From: an uncultured bacterium
GTDB lineage: Bacteria; Hydrothermota; UBA3072
DNA length: 64,000 nt
NCBI GenBank assembly: GCA_964525555.1
Contig: CAZGHN010000003.1
Span: 160 to 64,159 of the forward strand
Direction of reading: 5' to 3'
Made by a program: the position numbers and the translations under genes
The notes under the pieces: generated by a model
Seen by the model: the letters and a program-made list of their open reading frames with translations, nothing else
Database searches by the model: none
What the model was told of the DNA's origin: nothing
Part shown: piece after piece, positions 19,733 to 63,261 of the stretch
How positions within the stretch are numbered: the first letter of the stretch is position 1
Layout of the letters: each line of letters begins with the position of its first letter

Positions 19733-19814
19733 TGATTAAGGGTTGAGGGGTGGGTTTAAAACAATAAAAAATCTTGAGTTAATCCTGTGGTTAAATAAAA
19801 GGAGAGGAGGTTTG

Positions 19815-20717
19815 ATGAAAGTTTTAATCTGTGATGCGATAGCGAAAGATGCTGTTGACGGTTTAAAAGGGCTTGGAATTGAAGTAGTAGAGAATACTTC
19901 AGTAGAAAAAGAAGAGCTGGCCGGGATTATTGCCGACTATGACGGAGTTATCATAAGGAGCAGAACCAAAATAAGAAAAGATCTTATAGATATAGCAGCA
20001 GGAAGTGTAAAATTCGTAATAAGGGCAGGTGTGGGATTAGATAATATTGATGTGGATTATGCTGTAGGCAAAGGAATTGAAGTTATAAATACTCCTGAAG
20101 CTTCTACGAATGGAGTGGCAGAATTAGCTGTGGCGCATATGCTTGCACTTCTTAGGCATATACCTCAGGCAACTGCCAGTATGAAAAACGGAAAGTGGCC
20201 TAAAAAGGAACTTAAAGGTAACGAACTTGGCTCCTGTACGGTGGGTATTATAGGTTTGGGTAGGATAGGAAAAAGGACGGCTGAGTTAGTTCAGTGTTTT
20301 GGAGCAAAAGTCATTGGTCATGACCCTTACGTTAAGGAAGTCCAGGGTATAGATATTGAAATGGTCGGACTCAATGAATTGCTCACTTCTGCAGATATCG
20401 TTTCGCTTCATTTGCCTCACATTGACGAAACGCATCATTTGATTGGAGAGGAAGAATTTGGGAAGATGAAAAACAGCGTATATTTAGTAAATTGCGCACG
20501 GGGAGGGGTTATTGATGAGGATGCCTTATATAGTGCACTTAAAGATGGCAATATTAGAGGTGCTGCACTGGACGTTTTCGAGGTAGAACCGCCGACAGAT
20601 TTAAAATTAATGGAGTTGGATAACTTTATTTGCACTCCACATCTTGGTGCCCAGGCCGTTGAATCTTCAAATAGAGTAGGAGAAGAAGTCGTCAAGAAAG
20701 TAGCTGCTAAATTGTAG
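19815..20717 (+). CDS. serA: D-3-phosphoglycerate dehydrogenase-type 2-hydroxyacid dehydrogenase (short form)
   Basis: NAD-binding GIIGLGRIGK, then NCARGGVIDE and TPHLGA motifs. Start moved to ATG 19815 behind GGAGAGGAGG; the track start 19743 has no SD. Confidence 0.8.
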   Translation: MKVLICDAIAKDAVDGLKGLGIEVVENTSVEKEELAGIIADYDGVIIRSRTKIRKDLIDIAAGSVKFVIRAGVGLDNIDVDYAVGKGIEVINTPEASTNGVAELAVAHMLALLRHIPQATASMKNGKWPKKELKGNELGSCTVGIIGLGRIGKRTAELVQCFGAKVIGHDPYVKEVQGIDIEMVGLNELLTSADIVSLHLPHIDETHHLIGEEEFGKMKNSVYLVNCARGGVIDEDALYSALKDGNIRGAALDVFEVEPPTDLKLMELDNFICTPHLGAQAVESSNRVGEEVVKKVAAKL

Positions 20718-20941: not shown

Positions 20942-20969
20942 TTGACAAAAGATAATTACTTCTTAAATT
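20942..20969 (+). promoter_or_regulatory. sigma70-like promoter candidate, RsbR-like paralog 1
   Basis: TTGACA, 16-nt spacer, TAAATT. The same arrangement is conserved in the duplicated copy at 22715-22742. Confidence 0.45.
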
Positions 20970-21092
20970 TCCTTTATATGATAAAGCTTCTGGAGATTTT
21001 TAAAAAAGGCTTTTTAAGAATTTTTTAATTTTCGGAAAAAGCTTTTGAGATAATGTTTTCTCTTTTTTATTTTTTAAATTAAGGAGTGAAAT

Positions 21093-22394
21093 ATGGATAA
21101 AAAAAACAGAAATAAAAAGAATGTTGAGAAAGAATTTGACAAACTCCGTAAAGAAAGAGACGAAGCTTTATTCAAAGAAGCTTTGTTTGATGCTCTTTTA
21201 GAACACGTTCCTGAGCAAATTTATTTTAAAGATAAAGAAAGTCGTTTTGTTATGGCGAGCAAATCGGTTGTCGAACAGTTTGGTGTTAAAAAGATAGGTG
21301 AGCTAATCGGGAAAACGGATTTCGATTATTTTACCGATGAACATGCAAGAGCGGCGTATGAAGATGAGCAGAAAATAATAAAAACCGGAAAGCCCATTCT
21401 TGGTAAGGTTGAAAAAGAAACTCATCCCGACGGGAGAGTGACATGGGTTTCAACAACAAAAATTCCCAGGTATGACAAGAAGGGAAAGATAATAGGTATT
21501 TTGGGTCTTTCAAAGGATGTTACCACAAGAAAAGAGTTGGAAGAAAAACTTGAGTCAAAACTTAAAGAGCTAGGTAAAGAGGCTATGCTTAAGAGTAGCT
21601 TGCTTGATGCTCTTTTAGAGCACATTCCGGATCGTATATATTTTAAGGATAAGGAAAGTCGTTTTTTGGATGTTAGTAAATCGAAGGCGGAAGGAACTGG
21701 GCTAAAAAGGGAAGAGTTTAAAGGTAAGACAGATTTTGACTTTTTCTCCGAGGAAGAAGCGAAGGTGATGAGTGAAGACGAAATGAAAATAATGGAAACT
21801 GGAGAATCTGTCGTTGACAAAGTACAAAAAATTGAAATGTCCGATGGTAAAGAAAGGTGGTTCTCACAAACAAAAGTTCCTTTTTTCGACAAGAATGGAA
21901 ATATTATGGGCACTTTAGGGATCACAAGAGATGTAACAAGTGTAAAGACCCTTGAATTGGAAAAACAGGAAAAAATAGAGGCACAAAAAGAAGAACTCTT
22001 AGAGCTTTCTACCCCCGTAATCAATGTATGGGAAGGAATTCTTACGGTTCCTATATTAGGGGCTCTTGATAGCGAGAGAGCATCCAGAATTTCCGAGGCT
22101 CTTCTGACCGAGATAGTAGAAAAGAGAGCAGCGGCAGCTATTATAGACATTTCAGGTATAAGTGCGGTAGATAGTGCTGTTGCAGACCGGTTGATCCGTA
22201 CTGCCAAAGCAGTTAGGTTGGTAGGTGCTGAGGCGGTACTAACCGGAGTGGGAATAGAAATAGCCCAGACAATTGCCGATCTTGGAATTGATATGGGCGG
22301 GCTTAAGACAATGTCTACTCTCGCAGATGGTTTGAGATATGTTATTAATATTGGGCAGAATCCCAAAAAGAGACAAAATAAAGGAATTAAATAA
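21093..22394 (+). CDS. RsbR-like stressosome scaffold paralog 1: coiled coil, PAS(A), PAS(B), STAS
   Basis: Two PAS blocks (HVPEQIYFKDKESRF..GKTDFDYF..; HIPDRIYFKDKESRF..GKTDFDFF..). C-terminal STAS is ELSTPVINVWEGILTVPILGALDSERA..DISGISAVDSAVADRLIRTAKAVRLVGAEAVLTGVGIEIAQTI, resembling B. subtilis RsbR. Confidence 0.8.
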   Translation: MDKKNRNKKNVEKEFDKLRKERDEALFKEALFDALLEHVPEQIYFKDKESRFVMASKSVVEQFGVKKIGELIGKTDFDYFTDEHARAAYEDEQKIIKTGKPILGKVEKETHPDGRVTWVSTTKIPRYDKKGKIIGILGLSKDVTTRKELEEKLESKLKELGKEAMLKSSLLDALLEHIPDRIYFKDKESRFLDVSKSKAEGTGLKREEFKGKTDFDFFSEEEAKVMSEDEMKIMETGESVVDKVQKIEMSDGKERWFSQTKVPFFDKNGNIMGTLGITRDVTSVKTLELEKQEKIEAQKEELLELSTPVINVWEGILTVPILGALDSERASRISEALLTEIVEKRAAAAIIDISGISAVDSAVADRLIRTAKAVRLVGAEAVLTGVGIEIAQTIADLGIDMGGLKTMSTLADGLRYVINIGQNPKKRQNKGIK

Positions 22395-22398
22395 TTTT

Positions 22399-22488
22399 AT
22401 ATGCACTCCACATCTTGGTGCCCAGGCCGTTGAGTCTTCGAATAGGGGGGGAGAAGAAGTGGTTAAAAAAGTAGCGTCTAAATTATAA
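22399..22488 (+). pseudogene. orphan copy of the last 29 codons plus stop of serA (duplication scar)
   Basis: Translates ICTPHLGAQAVESSNRGGEEVVKKVASKL*, versus the serA C-terminus ICTPHLGAQAVESSNRVGEEVVKKVAAKL*. It begins 5 nt after the stop of paralog 1. No upstream coding continuation. Confidence 0.85.
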
Positions 22489-22714
22489 GAAAAGGAACAA
22501 TTTCTCGCATTACGCAAAAAGTTTTCTCATTTTGCAAATATTTTTTTAGCTAAACCTATGATTATAAATGACTTAAAATTTGGAATACTTTTTGCTCTGT
22601 ATTCCTATAGCTTTTTGAAAATTTAGCGGAGCGTCAATTTTTTCGGTTATTACCCTATAGAGGTTTATTTTTTTAAGGTTTTAAACCTTAAAATTGAAGT
22701 GCATAAAAAATCCC

Positions 22715-22742
22715 TTGACAAAAATATTTTTTTTCTTAAATT
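22715..22742 (+). promoter_or_regulatory. sigma70-like promoter candidate, RsbR-like paralog 2 (duplicate of 20942-20969)
   Basis: TTGACA, 16-nt spacer, TAAATT. Confidence 0.45.
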
Positions 22743-22866
22743 TCTTTTATGATAAGGATTTTAGAGGTTTATGGATAATAATCTATCGTTCGACTACGGG
22801 TATTATATAGGATCTTTTGACAACTATATTTTTGGTGTACGTCTTAAAATTTGATTGGAGGTTTTT

Positions 22867-23736
22867 TTGGCTAATAAAAATAAGAACAAAAGTAAAAGCG
22901 AGCTGGAAAGAGAAATTAAAACACTACGTAAAAAAATAAATGCGTTAGAGCTCAAGGGAAATTTACTGGACGCGCTTTTAGACCAAATCCCAGATCGTGT
23001 TTATTTTAAGGACAGAGAAAGCCGTTTTTTAGCGGTAAGTAGTTCGAAAGCTAAAGGAACAGGACTTACAAGACATCAGTTTGTAGGTAAGACTGATTTT
23101 GATTTCTTTAAAAAAGAAGAAGCTGAGGTGATGCGTGCAGATGAGGAAAAAATAATGACTAGCGGAAAACCTGTAGTAGATAAAGTCGAAAAGATGGTAT
23201 TATCGGATGGTAGGGAAATGTGGGCTTCTGCAACCAAAGTTCCTCTTTGTGATAGTAAAGGAAATGTCAAAGGTACATTAGGAATCACAAGGGATGTTAC
23301 AAGGCTTAAAACTCTTGAACTTGAAAAAGCAAAGAAGATAGAAGCACAGAAAGAAGAACTTATCGAACTTTCAACGCCTGTAATAGACGTCTGGGAAGGA
23401 GTACTTACGGTTCCCGTAATGGGAGTTCTTGATAGTGAGAGAGCGTCAAGGATTTCGGAAGAGTTGTTGACTCAAATTGTCGAGAAAAATGCAGTTTCTG
23501 CAATTATCGATATTTCGGGTATAAGTTCTGTTGATAGCGCAGTAGCTGATCTTTTGATACGTACAGCGAGAGCGGTAAAATTAGTCGGTGCTGAGGCGAT
23601 ATTAACCGGAGTTGGAGTGGAGATAGCTCAGACAATTGCAGATTTAGGCATTGATATGGAAGGGCTTAAAACGATGTCTACCCTCAGAGATGGCCTGAAA
23701 TATGTGATTAATAAAGGAAAGAAGGCATTATATTAA
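22867..23736 (+). CDS. RsbR-like paralog 2: coiled coil, PAS(B), STAS
   Basis: QIPDRVYFKDRESRF..GKTDFDFF.. PAS, then a STAS block about 85-90% identical in protein to the other paralogs. Probable TTG start at 22867, 5 nt after GGAGG (the track starts at 22855). Confidence 0.8.
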   Translation: MANKNKNKSKSELEREIKTLRKKINALELKGNLLDALLDQIPDRVYFKDRESRFLAVSSSKAKGTGLTRHQFVGKTDFDFFKKEEAEVMRADEEKIMTSGKPVVDKVEKMVLSDGREMWASATKVPLCDSKGNVKGTLGITRDVTRLKTLELEKAKKIEAQKEELIELSTPVIDVWEGVLTVPVMGVLDSERASRISEELLTQIVEKNAVSAIIDISGISSVDSAVADLLIRTARAVKLVGAEAILTGVGVEIAQTIADLGIDMEGLKTMSTLRDGLKYVINKGKKALY

Positions 23737-23828
23737 ATGTTACACATTTATTTCGAAATTAATATTTTACCTCGAGAAACGGAAAATCTTATATTATTAC
23801 ATTTTACTTGATTAATGGAGGTAGTATT

Positions 23829-25046
23829 TTGGATAAGAAAAACTATGAAAAAGAAATAGAAAGATTACGCAGAGAGAATGAAGAATACAAAAAATTAATA
23901 GAGGAAATGAGCGAAGGTTTCGCTTATCTTGAAGAAAATTTAACTTTTTCTTTTTCAAATCCCGCATGTGATAAACTTTTTGGTGTTCCTGAAAATGGGT
24001 TGATGGGCAGGAATATTACTGAATTTTTGAGTCCGGAGACCGCTAAAGAAGTTACGAAGAAAATAAAAATGCAGAGAAAAAATAAAAAAAATGTATTTGA
24101 AATGGAAATAAAAACTGGCAAGGATAAAAAATGTTATTTGTTGGTAAGGTCAAATCCTTCTTTTGATAATAAGGGAAATTTTGTTGGTTCATTTGTTTTT
24201 TTCTATGATATTTCAAAAAGGATAAAATTAGAAGAAGAACTTATTTTTGAGAGAGGTTTATTAAATTCACTTCTGGATTACATTCCGGACCGGATTTATT
24301 TTAAAGATAAGGAAAGTCGTTTTTTGAAAGTTAGTAAATCGAAAGCGGAAGGGACAGGGCTAAAAAGAGAGGAGTTTGAAGGTAAAACAGATTTTGACTT
24401 TTTCTCAGAGAAAGAAGCAAAAGAAATGCGTGAGGACGAAGAAAGAATAATGAAAACCGGAGAATTTGTCGTTAACAAGTTGCAAAAGTTAAAAATGCCT
24501 GATGGTAAAGAGAAATGGTTTACTGCAACCAAAGTTCCTTTCTATGACAAGGATGGAAATGTTATGGGTACATTAGGCATCACGAGAGATGTTACTAGGC
24601 TAAAAACCCTTGAATTGGAAAAAGGGGAAAAAATAGAGGCACAGAGAGAAGAACTCATAGAGCTTTCGACACCTGTGATCGATGTGTGGGATGGGGTTCT
24701 TACTGTTCCGATATTGGGGTCTCTGGATAGCGAGCGGGCATCGAGGGTTTCAGAGAGTTTGTTAACCCACATAGTGGAGAGGAGAACGGGGGTAGCTATA
24801 ATTGATATTTCCGGTATAAGCGCTGTGGATAGCGCCGTTGCCGATAGACTAATACGTACGGCAAAAGCGGTGCGGTTAGTCGGTGCTGAGGCGATATTAA
24901 CCGGAGTTGGAGTGGAGATTGCTCAAACGATTGCCGATCTTGGAATTGATATGGGGGGTCTTAAGACGATGTCTTCCCTGAAAGAAGGTTTGAAATATGT
25001 TATTTCACGCAAAAAAACCACTTTAGAAGAGGAGGAAAATGGCTAG
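23829..25046 (+). CDS. RsbR-like paralog 3: PAS(C), PAS(B), STAS
   Basis: A distinct N-terminal PAS (MSEGFAYLEENLTFSFSNPACDKLFGVPENGLMGRNITEFL..) followed by PAS(B) and STAS. Probable TTG start at 23829, 7 nt after GGAGG. Confidence 0.8.
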   Translation: MDKKNYEKEIERLRRENEEYKKLIEEMSEGFAYLEENLTFSFSNPACDKLFGVPENGLMGRNITEFLSPETAKEVTKKIKMQRKNKKNVFEMEIKTGKDKKCYLLVRSNPSFDNKGNFVGSFVFFYDISKRIKLEEELIFERGLLNSLLDYIPDRIYFKDKESRFLKVSKSKAEGTGLKREEFEGKTDFDFFSEKEAKEMREDEERIMKTGEFVVNKLQKLKMPDGKEKWFTATKVPFYDKDGNVMGTLGITRDVTRLKTLELEKGEKIEAQREELIELSTPVIDVWDGVLTVPILGSLDSERASRVSESLLTHIVERRTGVAIIDISGISAVDSAVADRLIRTAKAVRLVGAEAILTGVGVEIAQTIADLGIDMGGLKTMSSLKEGLKYVISRKKTTLEEEENG

Positions 25047-25404
25047 ATTAACGCGTATGCATTTAGGTGATATTCTCGTTGTTCCTATCCAGGAAGAATT
25101 GCATGATACAGCTGCTGAGGAGGCGGGAGAGACTATTATCAGAGAAGCGGATAATTCTGATATTAAAGGAGTTGCTATAGATATTTCCGCTCTTGATATA
25201 GTTGATAGTTTTCTTGGAAGATTGCTGCAGAAAATTGCCTGGGGTCTAAGGGCTATGGGGAAGGAAGTTATACTTGTTGGTATTCAGCCGGAGGTTGCTG
25301 TTGCCCTTGTTGAGCTTGGTTTGTATCTTGAAGAAATAAATACAGCTTTTGAGCTTGATTCAGCTTTGGAAAAATTAAGAGAAGTGATAGATAAAGGTTC
25401 TTGA
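25039..25404 (+). CDS. rsbS: RsbS-like single-domain STAS protein
   Basis: 121 aa with ..VVPIQEELHD..GVAIDISALDIVDSFLGRLL..VILVGIQPEVAVALVELGL.., closely parallel to B. subtilis RsbS. The Ser in the IVDSF position is conserved. 8-nt overlap with paralog 3. Confidence 0.85.
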   Translation: MARLTRMHLGDILVVPIQEELHDTAAEEAGETIIREADNSDIKGVAIDISALDIVDSFLGRLLQKIAWGLRAMGKEVILVGIQPEVAVALVELGLYLEEINTAFELDSALEKLREVIDKGS

Positions 25405-25793
25405 TGAAAGAAGAAATATTACGTATTCCTATAAATAAAGAGATAGACGTCTTAATTGCCAGGCGAGAGATAAAGAGTGAAGCTGAACGTATAGGTTTCA
25501 GGTGGATTGACCAGACGCGTATTGCTACAGCAGTTTCTGAACTTACTAGAAATATAATAAAACATGCCTATAGAGGTGAAGTCATAGTCAATAAAGATGA
25601 CGGAGGGATAGAAATTATATGTGAGGATGAAGGCCCCGGAATCCCGGATATTGATCAGGCTATGGAGAGAGGATACAGTACGACCAATTCGCTTGGTATT
25701 GGACTGATTGGAGCAAAACATCTTATGGATAGTTTTGAAATTGAAAGTACTGATAGCGGAACAAAAATAACTACTTACAAAAAGCTGAAATGA
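25401..25793 (+). CDS. rsbT: RsbT-like serine/threonine kinase (GHKL, HATPase_c_2 type)
   Basis: 130 aa: RIATAVSELTRNIIKHA (N box), CEDEGPGIPDID (G1), GYSTTNSLGIGLIGAKHLMD (G2). 4-nt overlaps with both neighbours. Confidence 0.85.
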   Translation: MMKEEILRIPINKEIDVLIARREIKSEAERIGFRWIDQTRIATAVSELTRNIIKHAYRGEVIVNKDDGGIEIICEDEGPGIPDIDQAMERGYSTTNSLGIGLIGAKHLMDSFEIESTDSGTKITTYKKLK

Positions 25794-26779
25794 GTACTAA
25801 AGAAACATTTCCTTCAATAAAGTTTACTGTCGAATCCGATGAGGATATTTATCGGATTCGTTCGGAGATGGCTAAATTTGCTAATAAGATAAGTCTTACA
25901 GCAAAGGAGATAGAAGAACTTAAAATTGTTATAACTGAAATATCAAAAAATATTATAAAACATAGTTCCTCGGGTAAGTTAATAATTTCTTTCGGGCATG
26001 GTGAACAAAGAAGTGTACATATAGTAGCTGAAAATCCTACTGATAATTCTGATACTACCGAAATTTTTGATGACGGATACAGTACGGCAAATACTCTCGG
26101 CATAGGATTGGGAGCTGTTAAGAGATTGCTTACTGATGTTAAGGTTAGGGTCGAAGAAGGAAAATTTATTCTGACGGGAGAGAAGGTGTTTGTCGATAAA
26201 AATAAAAGTATAATACAAACCAGTGTTTATAGTCGTCCGAAACCTGGTTTTAGAAGCAATGGAGACGCCTACTTTATAAAAAGATATGAAGATAAAGCAA
26301 TAGTTGCTGTTATAGATGGTATTGGTCATGGAGATAAAGCTAATGAGGCAAGTAGAATTGCTTTAAAAGTACTTGAAGATAAGTTTAGAGATGAACTTGA
26401 GCAAATAGCAGTTACGGTGCATAGAAAATTGCATGGAAGTAGAGGATGTGTTATGGGTATTGTTCGTATGGATAAAGAAGGTAAGATTGAATACCTGGGA
26501 GTGGGAAACATTCGTACGCAGATATACACTGCAGAAATGTATAAACGACTTGTTTCTTTTGATGGATTGTTGGGCAGCAATATGAGAACCGTAAGGACTG
26601 ATCGTCTCATCCTCACTACGCCTTGTTTAATTGTGTTGCATTCGGATGGTGTGTCTTCTTTTAATTTTGACGATAAACGTATTATTTATAGGCCAATTAT
26701 GGAGGTTGCAAAAGAATCTTTCGAGAAACACAAGAAAAGTTCTGATGATGCGACTCTATTAGTTGCAAGAATTCCATAG
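25790..26779 (+). CDS. PP2C/SpoIIE-type phosphatase (RsbX position) with an N-terminal degenerate RsbT/RsbW-like domain
   Basis: The N-domain keeps the N box (EISKNIIKH) and G2 (GYSTANTLGIGLGAVKRL), but the G1 position reads AENPTDNSD. The C-domain has PP2C motifs: NGDAYF, VIDGIGHGDKA, LHSDGV, DDATLLV. Confidence 0.75.
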   Translation: MSTKETFPSIKFTVESDEDIYRIRSEMAKFANKISLTAKEIEELKIVITEISKNIIKHSSSGKLIISFGHGEQRSVHIVAENPTDNSDTTEIFDDGYSTANTLGIGLGAVKRLLTDVKVRVEEGKFILTGEKVFVDKNKSIIQTSVYSRPKPGFRSNGDAYFIKRYEDKAIVAVIDGIGHGDKANEASRIALKVLEDKFRDELEQIAVTVHRKLHGSRGCVMGIVRMDKEGKIEYLGVGNIRTQIYTAEMYKRLVSFDGLLGSNMRTVRTDRLILTTPCLIVLHSDGVSSFNFDDKRIIYRPIMEVAKESFEKHKKSSDDATLLVARIP

Positions 26780-26802
26780 TAAGAAAAAAGAAGGAGGATT
26801 TA

Positions 26803-27657
26803 ATGGTGAAGAAAGAAAAGAACAAAACGGACCTTGAGAAAAAACTAAAAGCACTGGAGAAGGAAAATAAAGAATTAAGATTAGACAGAAATTTGCTAAA
26901 TTCTCTTTTAAAACATGTGCCGGAAAACATATATTTTAAAGATATAGAGAGCAGATTTATCAGAGTAAGCGAAGCTTTTGTTGATTATTTGGGTTTTGAT
27001 AGAGCCAAGGAGTTGACCGGTAAAACTGATTTTGATATTTTCGATGAAGAACATGCAAGCCCTGCCTACGAAGATGAACAAAAAATAATAAAGACTGGCG
27101 AATCAATACAAAAAGAGGAAAGAGAAGTTTATCCCAACGGAAGTGAGAAGTGGGTTGAAACTACTAAATTTCCCAGATATGATAAAAAGGGCAAAATTGT
27201 GGGGACTTTTGGTATCTCTAGAGATGTTACAGAAAAGAAACTCTGGGAAACGGAAAGAGAAAAGAAGTTAGAAGCTCAGAGAGAGGAACTGATAGAACTT
27301 TCAACTCCTGTAATAGATGTATGGGATGGTGTCCTTACGGTTCCCATATTAGGTTCTTTAGATAGCGAGAGAGCATCGAGGGTTTCAGAGGCTTTGTTGA
27401 CTCAGATAGTAGAAAAGAGAGCAGCGATAGCAATAATTGATATTTCCGGTATTAGCGCTGTGGATAGTGCTGTTGCTGATAGATTGATACGTACGGCAAA
27501 AGCGGTGAGGTTGGTCGGTGCTGAAGCGATATTAACCGGTGTTGGAGTGGAAATTGCTCAGACGATTGCAGATCTGGGAATTGATATGGAAGGTCTAAAA
27601 ACCATGTCTACATTAAAAGACGGTTTAAGATACGTGATTTCTTCACATACTAAGTGA
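26803..27657 (+). CDS. RsbR-like paralog 4: coiled coil, PAS(A), STAS
   Basis: HVPENIYFKDIESRF..GKTDFDIFDEEHASPAYEDEQKIIKTG.. PAS(A) type, then STAS. SD GAAGGAGGA upstream. Confidence 0.8.
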   Translation: MVKKEKNKTDLEKKLKALEKENKELRLDRNLLNSLLKHVPENIYFKDIESRFIRVSEAFVDYLGFDRAKELTGKTDFDIFDEEHASPAYEDEQKIIKTGESIQKEEREVYPNGSEKWVETTKFPRYDKKGKIVGTFGISRDVTEKKLWETEREKKLEAQREELIELSTPVIDVWDGVLTVPILGSLDSERASRVSEALLTQIVEKRAAIAIIDISGISAVDSAVADRLIRTAKAVRLVGAEAILTGVGVEIAQTIADLGIDMEGLKTMSTLKDGLRYVISSHTK

Positions 27658-27779
27658 TGACCTTTTAATAATGTCATAAAGTATACAAAGACGCTTTTAA
27701 TTACTATGTAATATAAACATTTTTTTCTTTATACACATAATAAGTTTTTACGATTATAGGTTAAATCCGAAAAATTATA

Positions 27780-27807
27780 TTGACAATTTGAGATAGATAC
27801 GTAAAAT
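27780..27807 (+). promoter_or_regulatory. sigma70-like promoter candidate for the second signalling tier
   Basis: TTGACA (27780-27785), 16-nt spacer, TAAAAT (27802-27807). Confidence 0.45.
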
Positions 27808-28023
27808 ACATTATAAGACATTAGAACAGAAAATGCATAATATGAGTAGCCTTGTTAAATTCAAATGTTAATTTAATGGTATTTTTCTGTTTTATAAAAG
27901 GGTGAAAGTTTTTATGGCACTAAGAATTTTCTTACATGAAGGATTTCTTCGAAGAGCGACTTATTTTAAAATTGAATTTTTTGGAATGTTTTTATATTTA
28001 ATGATAAGCAAAGGGGTGTTTAG

Positions 28024-28809
28024 ATGAATAAAAAAACCAGAGATTATGAAGAAGGTGATAATATTACGGTAATGAATGTCCTTCTGATTGAAGATGCTTC
28101 GTTTGCAGTTACTTTTATTAGAGAAACGCTTGCTTATTGTGAAGAGGCTGAATTGGTTAAAGCTACTAAATTTGCGTTAACCAATGTAGAAACTCTCGGA
28201 GAAGCACTTAAATGTCTTTCAGAGAACCAATTTGATCTTATTCTGCTTGATTTGAATTTACCCGATAGTAAAGAATTAAACACTCTCGATAGCGTGAGGG
28301 AAAATGCGCATAAAGTTCCTATAGTAGTTATAACAGCATTAAGTGATGAAGGTCTCGCTCTTGAAGCTATGAAGAGGGGAGCTGAAGGTTTTCTTGTTAA
28401 AGGCCAAATGGGTGTAAATGCCCTTTTGCAGGCAATTTTCTTTGCCGTAGAGCGTCATAGGATTTTGATTAAATTGGAGGAAAAAATTCGAGCGCTTAAA
28501 AGGAGCGAATCCAGATTTAAAAATATAATAGAAAAAATAGAAGATGCGATTATAGTTGCTGATAAACAAGGCGTAATTCAATTTACGAATATTTCCTCGA
28601 AAGATTTTCTTGGATCATCTCCTGAAGATCTTTTAGGTGAGAAATTTAAGTTTCCTTTGGAAGTTGACAAAACGAAAGAAATCGAATTAAAAGGAAAAGG
28701 AAAAAAGGTAATCAAAGCAGAAATGAGAGTGATCGAGACACAATGGGAAGGTGACGGAGCATATCTTATTCTGCTCAGAGAAATTAAAGTTGGTAAAAGC
28801 AAAAAATAA
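28024..28809 (+). CDS. response regulator: receiver domain plus PAS domain
   Basis: REC: VLLIEDA..LILLDLNLPDS..VVITAL..GFLVKG. C-terminal PAS: FKNIIEKIEDAIIVADKQGVIQFTN... Confidence 0.75.
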   Translation: MNKKTRDYEEGDNITVMNVLLIEDASFAVTFIRETLAYCEEAELVKATKFALTNVETLGEALKCLSENQFDLILLDLNLPDSKELNTLDSVRENAHKVPIVVITALSDEGLALEAMKRGAEGFLVKGQMGVNALLQAIFFAVERHRILIKLEEKIRALKRSESRFKNIIEKIEDAIIVADKQGVIQFTNISSKDFLGSSPEDLLGEKFKFPLEVDKTKEIELKGKGKKVIKAEMRVIETQWEGDGAYLILLREIKVGKSKK

Positions 28810-28825
28810 TTTATAGGAGAGGATT

Positions 28826-29371
28826 TTGCCTGATTTATCTGTTCATGTCTCCCGTGGTTGCCTTGTCGTGCCTATTCAGGGAGATATAGATGAAGAAATA
28901 ATGCATAATATTCAAAAGTTAGTTTTGTCAGGAGTCGAAGAAACGGGCGTCAAGGGAGTGGTAATAGATTTATCAGGAGTTAAGATTATAGATCCTTATA
29001 ATGCGGGTATTATCGATAAAACCGCTAAGATGATTAATTTATTGGGAGCCAAAACGGTACTTTCGGGGATTAAACCGGGGGTGGCTATTGCGCTTTCGGA
29101 TTCTCATTTTGAATTTGAAGAAATTTTTGAAATCGCGAGGACTTTCGAAGATGGAGTCGAAAAACTCCAATCTGTAGTTGAAGCCCACGAGATATTGCAG
29201 TCAGAAAAAGAGGAGACGGAGGAAGAGGATGAAGTTGCATTTGAGAAGGAGAGGATAGTAGATGAAGAGGTGATAGAGGTGGATGAAGTTAGTACAAAAG
29301 AGCAAATTGAGGAGAGCGAATATAATAAGACAGAATCTCCTCCTGAAGAGGAAAAGCGAGACTTTGATTGA
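28826..29371 (+). CDS. RsbS/RsbV-like STAS protein with a long acidic C-terminal tail
   Basis: [45 protein letters not shown]. Pro replaces the phospho-acceptor Ser (IIDPY versus IVDSF). About 60 aa of Glu/Asp-rich tail. TTG start after AGGAGAGGA. Confidence 0.7.
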
Positions 29372-31488
29372 TGTTTGCACTTGGTAAGATTTCCTTAAAA
29401 GATAAAGAATTTCTTATTGAAAAGAGAAATAAACTGCTTGATTTGGCAGTGGATCTCGGATTTGGAGAGGTTACTGCGATAAGGCTTACAACTGCCGCTT
29501 CTGAAGTAATTCGTAAGATTGCGGGATCCGGCAATGATTCTGTAGTTGAATTTTTTATTGATGAAAGGCAGGGCAAGTTTGGATTGTTAGTTCGATTTAT
29601 TTCCGGTAACGGTGTTTCAGAAACAGCTGAAATCCTCCAGTGTATATTCGATGAGGTGGAATGTTCTTTTTCTGATAACGGAAAAGAGATCTTAGTTGCA
29701 TTTAAATTTATTCCCGATTATTATTTTAAGCCAACTGAAGATTTCATAAATCAAGAGAGAGAAAAAATAGGCCGTCTTACGCGTGATGAATTATTCTTTG
29801 AACTCAAGAAATCATATTCGGAACTTGAAGAGGAGATTGAAGCCCATAAAGAAACAGAAGAGATGTTGAAAAGTGCAAAGATACAGGCAGAATCAGCCAA
29901 TAAAGCCAAAAGTGAGTTTTTAGCTTCCATGAGTCATGAGATTCGTACCCCTATGAACGCAATTATTGGAATGACTGAACTCCTTTTGGATACATCCCTT
30001 TCTAATGAGCAGAAGGGTTTTGTTGAAACACTCAGTAAGGCGGGAGATGCTTTACTTTCTTTGATAAATGATATACTTGATCTTTCTAAAATTGAAGCTG
30101 GTGATGTTGAACTAGAGAAGACGAATTTTGATCTTGCTGAACTTATTGAGGGGACCTGTGATGTTATGGCAGTTCGTGCCAGAAAGAAAAGTATAGAGTT
30201 TTTAAGTAGAATAGAACCTGATGTACCGATAAATTTAGTTGGCGATCCTGCAAGACTGCGTCAAATAATAGTCAATCTTATCGGGAATGCGATAAAATTT
30301 ACCGATGGAGGTGAGGTTGTTCTCAATGTGGCACTTTTGAAAAAAGGAGATGCCAGTTATTGTGGATCGGAGAGGGAAAAAAATATTTGTTTGCTATTCT
30401 ATGTGAAAGATTCTGGAATTGGTATAGCTAAGGATAAACAGGATAAAATTTTTGAAAGTTTTAAACAGGCAGATTCTTCGACTACAAGAAGATATGGTGG
30501 AACCGGTCTGGGCTTGAGTATTTCTAAAAAAATTACGAAATTAATGGGTGGTAAAATGTGGGTCGAAAGTGAATTAGAGAAAGGAAGTAAATTTTGCTTC
30601 ACTACTGTTTTCAAACCTCAGAAAGAGAAAGGGGAAGAGACATTTATTAAGCCGGGAGAAATCGATGTTAAGGGTATTTCTACTTTGATTGTCGATGATA
30701 ACGCAACTAACAGGCTGATTTTAAGGGAAATTCTGGCAGCGTGGGAAGCCAAAATAACGGAGGCTTCCGGAGGAAAAGAAGCTATTTCTATAATTAAATC
30801 GGCTTATGAGAAAAACAACCCATATGAACTGGTTCTTCTAGATTGTCGTATGCCGGAAATAGACGGCATGGGTGTGGCAAAGTTTTTAAGAGAACAAAAA
30901 AACTCTGAGGAAACAACAATAATGATGCTGTCTTCTGATTATAAGCCGAATGATTTAAAGCAAATAGATAGATATGGCATTGGCGCATATCTTTTAAAAC
31001 CTATAAAGAGAAAAGAATTGAAAAATGCTATTCTAACAACACTTGGTCTATGGAAAGCTCAAATTGGTAAAGAAAAAAAGATAAAGGAAAAGAAAGTGGA
31101 GGTTTCTATACCTGTTTTGAGAGTGTTGCTGGTTGAGGACAATCCTGATAATCGTTTGTTGGTAAAAGCTTTCTTGAAGAAAACTCCGATAGAAATAGAA
31201 GAAGCAGAAAATGGCCAGATAGCTGTTGATAAATTTACTGAAAATAAATATGATATAGTTTTGATGGATATGCAGATGCCGGTAATGGATGGTTATACTG
31301 CTACCAGGACTATTAGGAAATGGGAGACTGAAAACGATAAAGAGAAGACGCCTATTCTGGCTTTGACTGCTTATGCAATGAAGGAAGATAGAGATAAAAC
31401 ACTGAAAGCCGGTTGCACTGATTACCTTACGAAACCTATAAAGAAGGAAAAACTTATGGAAGCGCTCCGAAGATTATCAGGCAAATGA
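29368..31488 (+). CDS. hybrid histidine kinase: degenerate RsbT-like N-domain, coiled coil, HisKA, HATPase_c, REC, REC
   Basis: N-domain [22 protein letters not shown] resembles the RsbT N-terminus but lacks the N, G1 and G2 boxes. H box SHEIRTPMN; N box GNAIKFT; G1 DSGIGI; G2 GGTGLGLSI. Two receivers ([11 protein letters not shown]; [11 protein letters not shown]). 4-nt overlap with the STAS gene. Confidence 0.8.
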
Positions 31489-31509
31489 ATCTTTTTTAAA
31501 TAAATATAT

Positions 31510-32247
31510 ATGAAAGATAATAGAAAAGATGAGCAATCGGTAAATACGGAAAAAATTAAAAAAAAGAAGAAAAAAATCCTTATAATAGAAGATGATGAAA
31601 AATTTGCACGTGTCCTTTCGAAACAGCTTGAAAAGAACGGCTACGAGGTATCTAACGCGGGTAGTTTTTCTGGTTTTCTGGAAATTATATTAAAAGAAAA
31701 ATTTAATTTAATATTGCTTGACCTTGGATTGCCCGATAGTTCCGGACTCGAAACTTATGAAAAGATATCTAATACGGTGGGAGATATTCCCATTGTAGTA
31801 TTAACCGGGCTTGATGATGAGGAAATTGCAGTTGGAGCTGTTAAAAAGGGCGCGCAGGATTATCTTGTTAAAGGTGAAGTCGATAATAGAGTATTATTAC
31901 GTTCTCTTGATTATGCGATTGAGCGAAGCAGGTTATTATTCAGTTTGAAAAAACTTCAGGAGTTGGTGCTACAGTCGGAAAGGATTAAGGTTCTGGTGGA
32001 AACTGCCGGGGCAGCAGCGCACGAAATAAATCAGCCTTTAACTTCTATTTTCGGTATGTTGGAAATTTTGAAAAAGGACTTACCCGAAGACTCTTCAGTT
32101 AGACAAAAATTGGATTTTATTTTTGAGGCAGCCTGTCAGATAAGAGATATCATAAAAAAGATGGGGAGCGTAAAACAATATATAACGAAACCTTATTTGA
32201 AAGGTGTGGATATCGTAGATTTTGAAGAAGCAGCGGAAGACGAATAG
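31510..32247 (+). CDS. receiver domain fused to a stand-alone DHp/HisKA-like domain (no ATPase domain)
   Basis: REC: ILIIEDD..LILLDLGLPDS..VVLTG..DYLVKGE. H-box-like AAAHEINQPLTSI. The protein ends about 70 aa later with no N/G boxes. Confidence 0.65.
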   Translation: MKDNRKDEQSVNTEKIKKKKKKILIIEDDEKFARVLSKQLEKNGYEVSNAGSFSGFLEIILKEKFNLILLDLGLPDSSGLETYEKISNTVGDIPIVVLTGLDDEEIAVGAVKKGAQDYLVKGEVDNRVLLRSLDYAIERSRLLFSLKKLQELVLQSERIKVLVETAGAAAHEINQPLTSIFGMLEILKKDLPEDSSVRQKLDFIFEAACQIRDIIKKMGSVKQYITKPYLKGVDIVDFEEAAEDE

Positions 32248-32433: not shown

Positions 32434-32560
32434 GATTTAATGGATAAAATTACCCTTGCTATTTTATGGTTTTTCATATTTATAAGAGCTGTCATTTTCT
32501 TTGGACTTATCTATTTTATTGTGGTTGAATATAGAAAATATAAAAAGAAACGAGAGGAAG

Positions 32561-32875
32561 ATGAAAAACGGAATTGAGGAAATTCTTGATATTGAAAAGA
32601 AAGCAAGGAAGATAATCGACGAAGCGCAAGCGAAATCAGATAACATAAGAAGAGAAGCTGAGAAGGAAGCGAAAAAGATTGTAGCGAATGCAAACAAAGA
32701 AGCTAAATCAATAATTGAAGGATATAAGTTAAGACTTTCTAACGTTCAAAAAGAGGAACAAAAGGAAGTTGAAAAAAAGGGAATGGATTTGGAGAACGAC
32801 TGGATAAAAAATTATAAAGGAAAAAAAGATGAGCTGTTATCGAAATTAATAGCCTCCTCTATGAAAATAAAATAA
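32561..32875 (+). CDS. V/A-type ATPase peripheral-stalk subunit (G/H-like coiled coil)
   Basis: MKNGIEEILDIEKKARKIIDEAQAKSDNIRREAEKEAKKIV.. is a typical stalk coiled coil. Start set at ATG 32561 after GAGGAAG (the track starts at 32501). Confidence 0.5.
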   Translation: MKNGIEEILDIEKKARKIIDEAQAKSDNIRREAEKEAKKIVANANKEAKSIIEGYKLRLSNVQKEEQKEVEKKGMDLENDWIKNYKGKKDELLSKLIASSMKIK

Positions 32876-33753
32876 TGTATTATTCTATTTATTCTAAATT
32901 AAGAGCGATATATTCTTTTCTTCCGGATCGGGAAGATATCGAAAGCTTTCTCAATGTGCAGAGTACTTCGGGTCTTGTAAACATTCTTACTAAAACGAAT
33001 TTCTTGAAGAGATTTCCTGTTACAGATAAGGATTTGGAATCGCATTTGAAGATGATTCCTTTTTCTCTTGCAAAATTTGTAAGAAGTCAGATACCGGATA
33101 CCTCGGCTCTTTTCTTTGATTCTTATCTTAGAAGTTATGAATTACAGGATATTAAAAATATAATTCATGGTGGACAGGGTTTTTTTGTTGATGAATTACA
33201 TGGCAAAAAATTTAACATTCAAGAATTGAACGATTTTATGCAAAAGAGATTCTGGAAAGACTGTTGGAATGTTGCATACTCGAAGTATAAAAACACTCTG
33301 AGAAAAGTTGATATTGAAATTTCTTTAGATCATTGTTATTATTCTTCTTTCCTCAAGGATACGGATTATCTACCTTTTGAAGATAAATACCAGACAATGG
33401 AGCTTATTTTTATTCTTATTAATTTTAAAAATAGACTCAGCTTGCATCGTCTTAAAAATATTTATAATTTGGAAGGTTTCGAGCTAAAAAAATTTCTTAT
33501 TCCTGAAGGTGAAATTTTAGAAAGTATCGAAGAACAGAAAGGGTTACTTGAAAATACTTTCATAAAAGAATTTACACATATTTGCTATCGGGATTTTAAA
33601 TTCAAGATGTATTCTATGAGAGCAATTCTAGCTTTTTTCTTTCTCCTGGCAATTAGAATAAATGAAATTCTCTCTATTTATAGAGCTAAACCATTAGGAT
33701 TTGATAAAGAACGACTTAAGGATATTTGGGGTGGGGTTTATGTGGGTTCCTGA
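32875..33753 (+). CDS. ntpC: V-type ATPase subunit C (eukaryotic d-like)
   Basis: 292 aa, helical. Position and length fit subunit C; 1-nt overlap with the upstream gene. Confidence 0.6.
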   Translation: MYYSIYSKLRAIYSFLPDREDIESFLNVQSTSGLVNILTKTNFLKRFPVTDKDLESHLKMIPFSLAKFVRSQIPDTSALFFDSYLRSYELQDIKNIIHGGQGFFVDELHGKKFNIQELNDFMQKRFWKDCWNVAYSKYKNTLRKVDIEISLDHCYYSSFLKDTDYLPFEDKYQTMELIFILINFKNRLSLHRLKNIYNLEGFELKKFLIPEGEILESIEEQKGLLENTFIKEFTHICYRDFKFKMYSMRAILAFFFLLAIRINEILSIYRAKPLGFDKERLKDIWGGVYVGS

Positions 33754-35635: not shown

Positions 35636-35644
35636 GAGGTAGTT

Positions 35645-36013
35645 ATGGGAAGATTTAGTGGTATTATACAAGGACTGAAAAAAATCAATGTCCTTCTTTT
35701 AATTGTTGCTGCGTCTTTTGGTATAATGGGTATATTTACTGTCTTAACACCTGTTGCTCTTTTCGGGCAGGAAAGTACGGTTTCCGGCTCTTCCGGTAAT
35801 TACGCAGGATTTGCTTTTCTTGCGGCAGGTTTATCGATTTCGGTTTCCGTGCTGGGAGCTGGAATAGCTCTTTCCAAGATAGGTTCGGCTGCTGTGGCTG
35901 CGATTGCGGAAAAGCCTGAAATTATGGGAGCTGCAATTGTCTTTGCGGGACTTGCCGAAGGGCTTTCTATCTGGGGGCTTATTGTTTCTGTGCTTATACT
36001 TATGAAAGTATGA
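35645..36013 (+). CDS. ntpK: V-type ATPase proteolipid subunit K (c)
   Basis: Gly/Ala-rich hairpin GLSISVSVLGAGIALSKIGSAAVAAIAEKPE..AIVFAGLAEGLSIWGLIVSVLIL with a membrane carboxylate (LAEGL). It also carries an extra N-terminal hydrophobic segment. Confidence 0.8.
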   Translation: MGRFSGIIQGLKKINVLLLIVAASFGIMGIFTVLTPVALFGQESTVSGSSGNYAGFAFLAAGLSISVSVLGAGIALSKIGSAAVAAIAEKPEIMGAAIVFAGLAEGLSIWGLIVSVLILMKV

Positions 36014-59294: not shown

Positions 59295-59302
59295 GGGATG
59301 TT

Positions 59303-59866: not shown

Positions 59867-59868
59867 TT

Positions 59869-62179: not shown

Positions 62180-62188
62180 GGAGATTTT

Positions 62189-63259: not shown

Positions 63260-63261
63260 TA

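Follow-up and report, generated by a model that had tools for sequence, protein, structure and literature searches.

How would a stressosome pass on its signal where no sigma factor accompanies it? This question is raised by a locus of 11 ORFs, all on the + strand (21093–32247), in a 64,000-nucleotide stretch of DNA (the window) from an uncultured Hydrothermota bacterium. ORF calls and Pfam searches bore out the eleven same-strand genes and the domains given in a first-pass annotation; corrections of detail are described below.

Organization of the locus

The features of the locus (domains by Pfam) are as follows:

20942–20969, + strand: promoter-like site (TTGACA-16-TAAATT) upstream of R1; consensus match only
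21093–22394, + strand: R1, RsbR paralogue, PAS-PAS-STAS, 433 aa
22363–22485, + strand: duplication scar, which repeats the 3′ end of the 2-hydroxyacid dehydrogenase gene lying upstream
22715–22742: second promoter-like site after the scar, identical to the first; consensus match from a promoter scan
22855–23736, + strand: R2, RsbR paralogue, PAS-STAS, 293 aa
23808–25046, + strand: R3, RsbR paralogue, PAS-PAS-STAS, 412 aa
25039–25404, + strand: RsbS, single STAS domain, 121 aa
25401–25793, + strand: RsbT-type GHKL serine kinase, HATPase_c_2, 130 aa
25790–26779, + strand: X, phosphatase at the RsbX position, HATPase_c_2 and PP2C/SpoIIE, 329 aa
26803–27657, + strand: R4, RsbR paralogue, PAS-STAS, 284 aa
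27780–27807, + strand: promoter-like site (TTGACA-16-TAAAAT), 11/12; consensus match only
28024–28809, + strand: REC-PAS protein, 261 aa
28826–29371, + strand: STAS2, STAS domain, 181 aa
29368–31488, + strand: D1-type hybrid histidine kinase (HK), HisKA, HATPase_c and two REC, 706 aa
31510–32247, + strand: REC-DHp (REC-HisKA) protein, 245 aa

The genes had been divided into tier 1 (R1, R2, R3, RsbS, RsbT, X and R4) and tier 2 (REC-PAS, STAS2, the hybrid HK and REC-DHp). Position 20942, previously taken as the start of the locus, is the TTGACA hexamer of a promoter-like site and not a gene start. The scar has 80% amino acid identity to residues 284–324 of the ORF at 19743–20717 (tblastn) and is also found in the relative L001. 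The overlaps of 4–8 nt described within both tiers exist at four junctions only, namely R3/RsbS (8 nt), RsbS/RsbT and RsbT/X (4 nt each), and STAS2/HK (4 nt, or 1 nt with an ATG start), where the STAS2 stop codon overlaps the kinase start; the remaining junctions are gaps of 16–460 nt. The 367-nt gap between R4 and REC-PAS contains the best promoter-like site of the region (27780–27807), which suggests that tier 2 could be transcribed separately. Because the domain E-values range from 1e-12 to 1e-51 and the entire locus is syntenic in seven related MAGs (locus proteins 65–96% identical), chance domain matches or a chance arrangement are, on these grounds, not an issue.

Judged by its domains and motifs, tier 1 holds every component expected of a stressosome module, in agreement with its earlier description as a classical stressosome. 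The four PAS-STAS proteins, RsbS, RsbT and the PP2C protein are all present, but the fourth PAS-STAS protein (R4) lies downstream of the phosphatase rather than before RsbS, a position kept in all relatives (synteny). R1 retains a serine (VDSAVAD; site alignment) at what we take to be the equivalent of RsbR T171 in B. subtilis numbering. RsbS keeps the phosphorylatable serine (IVDSF) and has no acidic tail. The N-box (SELTRN), G1 (DEGPG) and G2 (GIGLIGAK) motifs of RsbT are all intact, and its NCBIfam SpoIIAB/RsbW matches are below the cut-off. Protein X, annotated simply as a PP2C, has this domain and also bears an N-terminal RsbT-like GHKL domain (residues 1–135; Pfam and HMM map). This architecture is that of the widespread NCBI family “ATP-binding SpoIIE family protein phosphatase” (HATPase_c_2 and PP2C, ~330 aa), of which >200 proteins from many phyla were matched. 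X differs from this family in that (i) the G1 box has been lost in the window lineage (NPTDNS), for which only PF13581 is recorded, and (ii) it sits at the RsbX position of a stressosome operon.

The tier 2 proteins contain the parts of a phosphorelay. REC-PAS has an acceptor-Asp motif (LLDLNLPD), and REC-DHp, which lacks a catalytic domain, combines a receiver with a HisKA helix pair that contains a His box (AAHEINQPL); it is a likely His phosphotransfer step. Within this window, the relay was not seen to end in an output domain (DNA-binding or c-di-GMP enzyme). A Pfam scan of 44 window ORFs, which covered all but a few of the large ones, detected no sigma-factor domain, and a six-frame HMM scan of the window detected no STAS, RsbT-like or PP2C domains beyond the locus; RsbU_N, RsbV and an active RsbW are absent from the locus itself. 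These results support the earlier statement that the window has no sigma factor or RsbV/W. Together, the two tiers point to a stressosome that signals into a His-Asp phosphorelay instead of a sigma factor.

The kinase N-domain and the proline-substituted STAS2

The hybrid HK is composed of an N-domain (residues 1–~120), a helical linker (residues 124–180), HisKA (residues 180–245), HATPase_c (residues 292–412) and two REC domains (residues 438–558 and 584–704). No Pfam or NCBIfam model matches its first 135 residues. A profile of 63 N-domain family members aligned to residues 6–63 of the window RsbT with 34.7 bits (E = 3.8e-10 against the six-frame window), spanning the AR and TR.AT.SEL.R motifs. 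In a Foldseek search of the PDB with the AF2 model of the N-domain (pLDDT 92, pTM 0.86), the best 19 matches were all RsbW, SpoIIAB or UsfX (E-values 5e-6 to 1.5e-3, 17 at ≤1e-3; TM 0.53–0.72). Profile and predicted structure together support the first-pass view that the kinase begins with a degenerate domain of the RsbT/RsbW fold.

Comparison with RsbW, SpoIIAB and UsfX and their STAS antagonists (PDB 6M36/6M37, 1TH8 and 8IH8) revealed the same fold and a translationally coupled STAS gene, with the following differences: (i) the N-domain has no ATP lid, its N-box Asn is replaced (SEVIRK) and the G1/G2 glycines are absent; (ii) it is fused to a histidine kinase; (iii) the STAS partner has no phospho-Ser; and (iv) a sigma factor plays no part. 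Both the helix-1 Arg and the S-E pair in the N-box helix are retained, and R20, K22, L26, S45, E46, L73, F77, F94 and D95 are near-invariant. Having lost the N-box Asn and the G1/G2 motifs, the N-domain is, judged by sequence, a catalytically dead pseudokinase. In the full-length kinase model, a continuous helix (residues 139–207) runs into the H-box. Neither Pfam nor this model revealed any other sensor domain; therefore, the N-domain would be the only input of the kinase.

STAS2 had been proposed as an RsbV-like antagonist of a second-tier partner switch, a proposal that we reject. The phospho-Ser of RsbS-type STAS domains is replaced by Pro in STAS2 (IDPYNAG; site alignment), and this Pro is conserved in five relatives (L001, L002, L004, L005 and L006), which excludes a phosphorylation-driven switch of the RsbV/RsbW type at that site. 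The nearest kin of STAS2 are the RsbS proteins of canonical loci, with which it has up to 49% identity, more than any other window protein, and with which it shares an acidic tail (in STAS2, 63 C-terminal residues rich in Asp/Glu); mean similarity to canonical RsbS is 88 bits for STAS2 versus 58 bits for the window RsbS. By these alignments, STAS2 is orthologous to the RsbS with an acidic tail that canonical loci encode. Independently, in L012 and L013, a tailed RsbS directly precedes the N-domain kinase and RsbT is missing. In Vibrio loci, an extra STAS is absent and RsbS lacks the acidic tail; STAS2 is therefore no general requirement.

Conserved neighbourhood and known systems

About 105 protein clusters carry the N-domain (E ≤ 1e-3), nearly always starting at residue 1; 66 of the 78 family members scanned are histidine kinases, and the others are PP2C, GGDEF or cyclase proteins. 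Neighbourhoods were counted at 33 distant metagenomic loci whose upstream sequence was long enough. STAS genes lay directly upstream in the same orientation at 32 of the 33 loci, RsbT at 30 and an abutting PP2C gene at 27, and Pfam spot checks agreed. The usual order is RsbR-RsbS-RsbT-(RsbX)-kinase, that is to say, RsbT either immediately precedes the N-domain gene or is separated from it by RsbX only; eight canonical loci lack the intervening phosphatase, so that RsbT abuts the kinase gene. Judged from these neighbourhoods, the N-domain family almost never occurs away from RsbS and RsbT, and the association of stressosome genes with N-domain kinases is strongly conserved in distant relatives. 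The two tiers of the first-pass annotation appear to be an expanded and rearranged version of a single canonical RsbR-S-T-X-kinase module.

The suggestion that this arrangement was new is too strong. RsbRSTX modules with two-component or phosphorelay outputs have been catalogued (Heinz et al. 2022, PMC9237108), and genetic work in V. vulnificus has tested the wiring of RSTX to output (Cutugno et al. 2023, PMC10014275), so that stressosome-to-phosphorelay wiring is already known, for example in Vibrio; its bearer in the window is probably a member of candidate division WOR-3. Like the V. vulnificus-type locus RsbR-RsbS-RsbT-RsbX-VvD1-VvD2 (Pane-Farre 2005; PMC9237108; PMC10014275), the window has an RsbRST(X) module that lacks a sigma factor and precedes a hybrid histidine kinase and response regulators. 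In the RSTX-D1-D2 locus of Vibrio aquimaris, the D1-type kinase carries the same N-domain (113 bits), with HisKA at positions identical to those of the window kinase (residues 180–245). The window locus differs in that (i) four PAS-RsbR paralogues take the place of a single globin-RsbR; (ii) its RsbX is fused to an RsbT-like domain; (iii) RsbX is separated from the kinase by an RsbR gene, REC-PAS and the Pro-substituted, tailed RsbS; and (iv) its relay ends in REC-DHp and REC-PAS, whereas that of Vibrio ends in a REC-HD-GYP c-di-GMP phosphodiesterase.

With the B. subtilis RsbR/S/T-RsbU-RsbV-RsbW-SigB system, the locus shares RsbR paralogues, RsbS, RsbT, a PP2C feedback phosphatase and, presumably at the same numbered positions, conserved Ser/Thr sites in STAS domains. 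By contrast, the window has no RsbU_N, RsbV, active RsbW or sigma factor, its output enzyme is a histidine kinase, and its input domain has the RsbT/RsbW fold rather than that of the four-helix RsbU_N. In Moorella thermoacetica (MtR/MtS/MtT/MtX-MtG) and in RsbU_N-fused kinases and cyclases (Quin 2012; Baral et al. 2025, PMC12143880), a stressosome likewise controls an output other than a sigma factor, by way of an N-terminal adaptor and a helical linker; the adaptor there is RsbU_N, whereas that of the window is an unrelated GHKL-fold pseudokinase domain.

Possible routes from the stressosome to the kinase

The explanation that we favour, with a probability of about 0.5, is that RsbT-fold domains compete for STAS docking and that the stressosome signals into a His-Asp phosphorelay. 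The analysis establishes which domains are present, that the catalytic motifs are lost, that Ser has given way to Pro and that the neighbourhood is conserved; the binding partners and the sign of the effect are inferred. The four PAS-RsbR co-antagonists and RsbS would form the sensing core, with RsbT as the switch kinase and X as a PP2C feedback phosphatase with its own RsbT-like docking domain. The RsbT fold would be a STAS-docking module, of which three versions (active RsbT, the phosphatase N-domain and the kinase N-domain) would compete for RsbS-type STAS surfaces. STAS2, non-phosphorylatable at the canonical site, would hold the kinase N-domain, which a long helix connects to the DHp domain and which would provide the coupling. 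Upon a signal, RsbT would leave the PAS-RsbR/RsbS core, bind STAS2 and displace the kinase; the state of the linker helix, and with it autophosphorylation, would change. Phosphate would then pass from the D1-type hybrid kinase (H, D, D) to the His of REC-DHp and on to a receiver (its own or that of REC-PAS). The similar phenotypes of RSTX and D1 deletions in V. vulnificus (PMC10014275) count in favour of this mechanism. Vibrio loci without an extra STAS, the promoter-like site before REC-PAS and the lack of a relay-end output domain in the window were counted against it. The STAS partner of SpoIIAB covers the nucleotide pocket and lid when docked (PDB 1TH8), and because the N-domain has no lid in this docking region, its STAS binding may be lost.

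The eight loci in which RsbT abuts the kinase gene favour, against docking competition, a direct contact between RsbT and the N-domain. Free RsbT would bind the N-domain as a GHKL heterodimer mimicking the RsbW/SpoIIAB homodimer, the N-domain would be to the kinase what RsbU_N is to RsbU, and STAS2 would be an extra non-phosphorylatable subunit of the stressosome core. This is possible, though we consider it clearly less probable than docking competition. It agrees with the upstream position of RsbT at 30 of the 33 loci, the N-domain-PP2C protein at the RsbU position in L051 and L052, the fusion of the N-domain to the same range of outputs (HK, PP2C and GGDEF) as RsbU_N (PMC12143880), and the modelled linker helix, which resembles the RsbT-RsbU coiled-coil mechanism (PMC12143880). 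However, bacterial two-hybrid analysis detected no VvRsbT-VvD1 interaction (Heinz et al. 2022, PMC9237108), and direct binding leaves unexplained why the window lineage keeps a Pro-substituted RsbS translationally coupled to the kinase and why L012 and L013 retain a tailed RsbS after losing RsbT.

The negative two-hybrid result is compatible with a transient contact, and Heinz et al. (2022, PMC9237108) suggested that RsbT transiently phosphorylates a kinase Ser/Thr, in the N-domain or the linker, without a stable complex. The window RsbT has the intact boxes for this, and RsbT reportedly phosphorylates the cyclase MtG in Moorella (PMC4976288). The one near-invariant hydroxyl of the N-domain, S45, nevertheless looks like an inherited feature of the fold rather than an acceptor site, because it lies within the S-E pair common with the N-box helix of RsbT; furthermore, a whole conserved fold exceeds the needs of a substrate site, and we regard this route as improbable. 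Equally poor are the prospects of the view that 28024–32247 is an autonomous two-component system with its own promoter, its adjacency being a historical remnant without present cross-talk: the 367-nt gap with its promoter-like site, the separation of RsbT and RsbX from the kinase and the lost STAS2 phosphorylation site fit it, but the arrangement, the N-domain and the Pro variant are kept across the seven MAGs, the N-domain family stays beside RsbS and RsbT, and the N-domain is the sole input that the kinase appears to have.

Docking competition thus remains the reading that we prefer. A dead copy of the stressosome’s own switch kinase, placed at the start of the output kinase, may be the missing link between stressosome and phosphorelay.

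Gene content of the locus

The region comprises 11 open reading frames (ORFs), all on the forward strand, as determined by ORF calling and Pfam. The stressosome-type genes R1 to R4 form tier 1, and the genes from REC-PAS to REC-DHp form tier 2.

Genes of the locus, with domains assigned by Pfam
21093–22394, +, R1: PAS-PAS-STAS
22855–23736, +, R2: PAS-STAS
23808–25046, +, R3: PAS-PAS-STAS
25039–25404, +, RsbS: STAS only
25401–25793, +, RsbT: HATPase_c_2
25790–26779, +, X: HATPase_c_2 and PP2C/SpoIIE
26803–27657, +, R4: PAS-STAS
28024–28809, +, REC-PAS
28826–29371, +, STAS2: second single-STAS protein
29368–31488, +, hybrid kinase: HisKA, HATPase_c and two REC domains
31510–32247, +, REC-DHp: REC-HisKA, without a catalytic domain

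The observation of this locus in the first-pass annotation is confirmed, and its interpretation is partly supported. Its inventory of 11 same-strand genes with their domains was borne out by Pfam apart from 4 corrections: (i) the fourth PAS-STAS gene, R4, is not among the first sensor genes and follows the phosphatase X; (ii) the gene described as PP2C does encode a phosphatase, which is not PP2C alone and has an N-terminal RsbT-like domain too; (iii) the overlapping junctions ascribed to each tier exist at R3/RsbS, RsbS/RsbT, RsbT/X, and STAS2/kinase, and stop and start overlap nowhere else; and (iv) position 20942, taken as the start of the locus, is a promoter-like hexamer. A six-frame HMM scan revealed no further STAS, RsbT-like, or PP2C domain elsewhere in the window. 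The locus is flanked upstream by PBP1, OmpA, and 2-hydroxyacid dehydrogenase genes and directly downstream by a V-type ATPase operon (32501–40985). The 3' end of the window is occupied by a gene cluster for an Mbh/Mrp-type membrane-bound hydrogenase or a complex-I-like enzyme (53914–63876), and for 2 ORFs of 410 and 561 residues (41894–43126, +; 48045–49730, −) Pfam gave no family at the thresholds applied.

The stressosome gene set is complete. The 4 PAS-STAS proteins combine a sensor with a C-terminal STAS domain carrying the Ser/Thr of RsbR proteins (VDS and EIAQT motifs in all 4); the ORF at 25039–25404 encodes a single STAS domain with the phospho-Ser of RsbS (IVDSF); RsbT is a small GHKL Ser kinase (HATPase_c_2, E = 4e-13) whose N, G1, and G2 boxes are legible in the sequence; and the adjoining X is the PP2C feedback phosphatase. 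Seven related metagenome-assembled genomes (MAGs) with phosphatases 76–86% identical to X contain the complete locus between the same flanking genes; at such close range, synteny is by itself little informative on coupling. Among these close relatives, 2 to 4 RsbR genes precede RsbS, and R4 is present 3' of the phosphatase in every one.

Between R1 and R2, positions 22363–22485 repeat the final ~40 codons of the 2-hydroxyacid dehydrogenase gene that precedes the locus; 3' of this copy, a promoter-like site (22715–22742) is identical to that at 20942. The same dehydrogenase-tail scar is found in one related MAG (L001, 5220–5393). The tail copy and the repeated promoter-like site point to R1 as the product of a recent tandem duplication of a unit consisting of dehydrogenase tail, promoter, and rsbR. 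The possibility that R4 is a LOV photoreceptor like YtvA was rejected, as its NCBIfam score (93 bits) is below the cut-off (250 bits) and an NCRFL motif is absent.

X belongs to a large family of ~330-residue HATPase_c_2-SpoIIE proteins, named "ATP-binding SpoIIE family protein phosphatase" at NCBI, and its closest named homologues (81% and 68% identity) are annotated as candidate division WOR-3. Its PP2C/SpoIIE domain (residues 157–327) has a DGIGHGD motif and scores 237 bits with a local PP2C HMM, with Pfam scores under the curated cut-offs. The GHKL domain (25790–26203) has retained a G2-like motif and its N-box, EISKN. Family members at greater distance carry the annotation "ATP-binding" and match PF02518 as well. 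In the window lineage, the G1 box has been lost (NPTDNS opposite DEGPGI of RsbT), because of which we consider this domain probably a docking module rather than a kinase.

In tier 2, the hybrid kinase has the His box SHEIRTP and 2 REC domains with LLDCRMP and LMDMQMP, both stand-alone REC domains have LLDL motifs, and the REC-DHp protein, which lacks a catalytic domain, has AAHEINQPL. These motifs supply every His and Asp of a multi-step phosphorelay: the His of the kinase, the Asp residues of the receivers, and a His-phosphotransfer module on a protein of its own. Pfam revealed no DNA-binding or enzymatic output domain in the locus, whose only stand-alone receivers are REC-PAS and REC-DHp.

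The N-terminal domain of the hybrid kinase

The first ~135 residues of the hybrid kinase (the N-domain) matched nothing in Pfam (E ≤ 10) or NCBIfam when searched alone, and BLASTP revealed no significant similarity to the window RsbT. The contig index contained no exact match to the kinase. Exhaustive HMMER against 1.84 billion representatives yielded 105 clusters at E ≤ 1e-3, compared with only 2–4 relatives from a word-indexed search, and almost all of these matches begin at residue 1. The N-domain is thus an uncurated family, without a Pfam-A or NCBIfam model; a fragment with 62% identity is annotated as candidate division WOR-3. Among 78 full-length members, 66 contain HisKA, 29 REC, and 14 Hpt, and a few carry SpoIIE, GGDEF, cyclase, EAL, or HD domains instead. 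One member of 552 residues (P0004) matches in 2 stretches, the best at residues 131–254, and may contain a tandem pair of pseudokinase domains.

The profile of 63 members aligns to residues 6–63 of the window RsbT with 34.7 bits, and shares with it 2 motifs, A-R (helix 1) and T-R-x-A-T-x-x-S-E-L-x-R (helix 2). The near-invariant helix-1 Arg of the N-domain occupies the same position as the Arg in the A-R motif of RsbT and SpoIIAB; in SpoIIAB this residue, R20, touches sigma F as well as SpoIIAA. The N-box has lost its Mg-binding Asn, and the G1 and G2 glycine motifs are absent. Searching the profile against PDB sequences gave noise only, and a fold search was what worked. With the AlphaFold2 model built from the 63-member alignment (pLDDT 92, pTM 0.86), the 19 best Foldseek matches in the PDB were all RsbW, SpoIIAB, or UsfX (E from 5e-6 to 1.5e-3, 17 of them at ≤1e-3), followed by noise or ordinary kinase catalytic domains. 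The description "degenerate RsbT-like" in the first-pass annotation is therefore correct: the profile aligns to RsbT, the modelled fold is of the RsbW type, and the domain falls short of the length of a true GHKL kinase, with neither G1 nor G2. In the full-length model of the kinase (pLDDT 91.5), a helix at residues 124–135 and a continuous helix at residues 139–207 lead to the His box, a predicted layout that is the usual geometry of a histidine-kinase input domain. We found no description of an RsbT/RsbW-fold N-domain in such kinases in the searchable literature; subscription work (e.g., Pane-Farre 2005, 2017) may hold one.

Distant N-domain loci and the 2 RsbS copies

A metagenome scan, in which a 12-sequence sub-alignment served as the query (the 63-sequence alignment being too diverse), yielded 48 loci with N-domains 26–48% identical to that of the window (26–44% where the match spans most of the domain). 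Gene order was taken from a six-frame HMM map, with which Pfam spot checks agree. Upstream sequence reached 1.5 kb or more in 33 loci; among these, a STAS gene was found in 32, RsbT in 30, and a PP2C gene abutting the N-domain gene in 27, all on the same strand and in the order RsbR–RsbS–RsbT–(RsbX)–N-domain protein. As sensors, the RsbR proteins have protoglobin, PAS, or Cache-HAMP domains (Pfam spot checks). The apparent absence of RsbT/RsbX from 5 loci (L008, L009, L014, L026, and L034) was rejected, being due to spurious antisense ORFs without Pfam hits; the six-frame map restored the genes. Such ORFs can crowd out true short genes in naive ORF calling in the window too, where long antisense ORFs opposite real genes (e.g., 21422–22366, −) have no Pfam hits and the GC skew is strongly positive on the forward strand (0.2–0.35).

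The association of N-domain kinase genes with RsbS and RsbT genes is close to obligate, and the expected co-location of the 2 tiers in relatives survives decisively; functional independence of the 2 halves of the locus is the less likely reading. In the window, the kinase gene is not directly 3' of RsbT or RsbX, and R4, REC-PAS, and STAS2 (2.6 kb) intervene. In 2 distant loci (L051, 5605–11281; L052, 3–5229), genes for Cache-HAMP-STAS, protoglobin-STAS, RsbS, a 186-residue RsbT, and RsbX are followed, in the position expected of RsbU, by the gene for an N-domain-PP2C protein, which looks like an RsbU analogue with a pseudokinase domain replacing RsbU_N.

An alignment of all STAS domains revealed Ser at the canonical phosphorylation position in the window RsbS and all 4 RsbR proteins, and Pro in STAS2 (IDPYNAG); STAS2 orthologues in 5 related MAGs have D/E-P-Y. 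Against RsbS proteins of canonical distant loci, STAS2 scores 88 bits on average and the window RsbS 58 bits, with best identities of 49% and 37%, respectively. An Asp/Glu-rich C-terminal tail of at least 10 residues is found in STAS2 and in 30 of 34 RsbS proteins of distant N-domain loci, and the window RsbS has none. Because of the closer match to canonical RsbS and the shared acidic tail, STAS2 is an RsbS orthologue and no RsbV analogue; the Pro at its phospho-site also disagrees with an RsbV-like role. To judge from these sequences, STAS2 is the orthologue of the original RsbS of the module. Its translation is now coupled to that of the kinase, and it is predicted to be non-phosphorylatable at the canonical site, whereas RsbT is accompanied by a second RsbS, which is phosphorylatable and has no tail.

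Two distant loci are an independent parallel to this arrangement (L012, 4539–8397; L013, 8704–11542): a tailed RsbS directly precedes an 861-residue N-domain kinase, RsbT is missing, and the PP2C (RsbX) is cut down to a fragment of ~74 residues. Two further loci (L015 and L025) contain a near-identical RsbS in a complete locus. The acidic tails across the distant loci (L008–L055) are 10–55 residues long. The tail was considered as a partner feature shared by all N-domain loci and rejected, since the RsbS of Vibrio aquimaris has none; it is common, not universal.

Proposed coupling of the stressosome to the kinase

A tblastn search of plasmids with one globin-type N-domain found nothing, and a second query identified a Vibrio aquimaris replicon encoding PAS-PAS-PAS-STAS, STAS, HATPase_c_2, SpoIIE (196 residues), a 913-residue kinase (HisKA at residues 180–245, HATPase_c, REC, REC, and Hpt), and REC-HD-GYP. 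Residues 1–140 of this kinase score 113 bits with the N-domain profile, and the gene order is the RSTX-D1-D2 one reported from V. vulnificus (PMC9237108, PMC10014275). Stressosome modules with two-component or phosphorelay outputs downstream have been described before (PMC9237108, section 10; PMC10014275), and the novelty suggested for this wiring does not stand. The window kinase is of the D1 type as defined here by domains (N-terminal RsbT/RsbW-fold pseudokinase, helical linker, HisKA, and HATPase_c), whereas the literature defines D1 by position alone.

As a variant of the Vibrio-type system, the window locus is new, and it belongs to another phylum. It differs in that (i) it has 4 PAS-RsbR paralogues, one apparently from the recent tandem duplication; (ii) RsbS is split in two, one copy being phosphorylatable and the other having Pro at the site; (iii) the phosphatase is GHKL-fused; and (iv) it ends with REC-PAS and REC-DHp. 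Compared with the RsbV/RsbW partner switch, STAS2 has Pro instead of a phosphorylatable Ser; the N-domain, without the N-box Asn and G1/G2, is no kinase-active anti-sigma factor; and, as had been noted, there is no cognate or other sigma factor among the 44 window ORFs scanned with Pfam, a subset of those in the window.

The link between stressosome and output is understood only for targets containing RsbU_N. Heinz et al. reported that most such downstream proteins, including VvD1 of V. vulnificus, have no RsbU_N and that their coupling is unknown (PMC9237108). In the window, 2 further RsbT-fold domains without full catalytic motifs are fused to the feedback phosphatase and the output kinase. 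We suggest that the RsbT fold would act as a STAS-docking module: STAS2 would hold the N-domain of the kinase, RsbT freed from the PAS-RsbR/RsbS core would compete for STAS2, and the change at the N-domain would be passed through the linker helix to the DHp domain. More generally, the N-domain family might consist of "RsbT mimics", catalytically dead GHKL domains through which output enzymes, be they histidine kinases, PP2C phosphatases, GGDEF proteins, or cyclases, would dock on stressosome RsbS-type STAS proteins in competition with RsbT; we give this tentative reading about one chance in three.

Its main rival is that RsbT would bind the N-domain directly, by analogy with RsbT and RsbU_N (PMC12143880). 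The RsbT gene adjoins the N-domain gene in 8 loci, which favors direct binding, but Heinz et al. (2022) found no RsbT–D1 contact in Vibrio-type systems, the two-hybrid assay of VvRsbT with VvD1 being negative (PMC9237108). RsbT looks active by its motifs, and phosphorylation of the kinase by RsbT on Ser/Thr is a less likely alternative.

For most Gram-negative loci, that of the pathogen V. vulnificus among them, the Vibrio authors describe the link as unknown. The dead RsbT/RsbW-fold start of D1-type kinases, nearly always encoded beside RsbS and RsbT, is a concrete and testable object that turns this acknowledged gap between stressosome and two-component output into a specific binding question. 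The window lineage offers a natural dissection, with a non-phosphorylatable RsbS copy beside the kinase and a phosphorylatable RsbS beside RsbT. If the docking reading is true, "RsbT mimics" would be the missing physical link to non-sigma outputs in Vibrio and in many other Gram-negative and uncultured bacteria.
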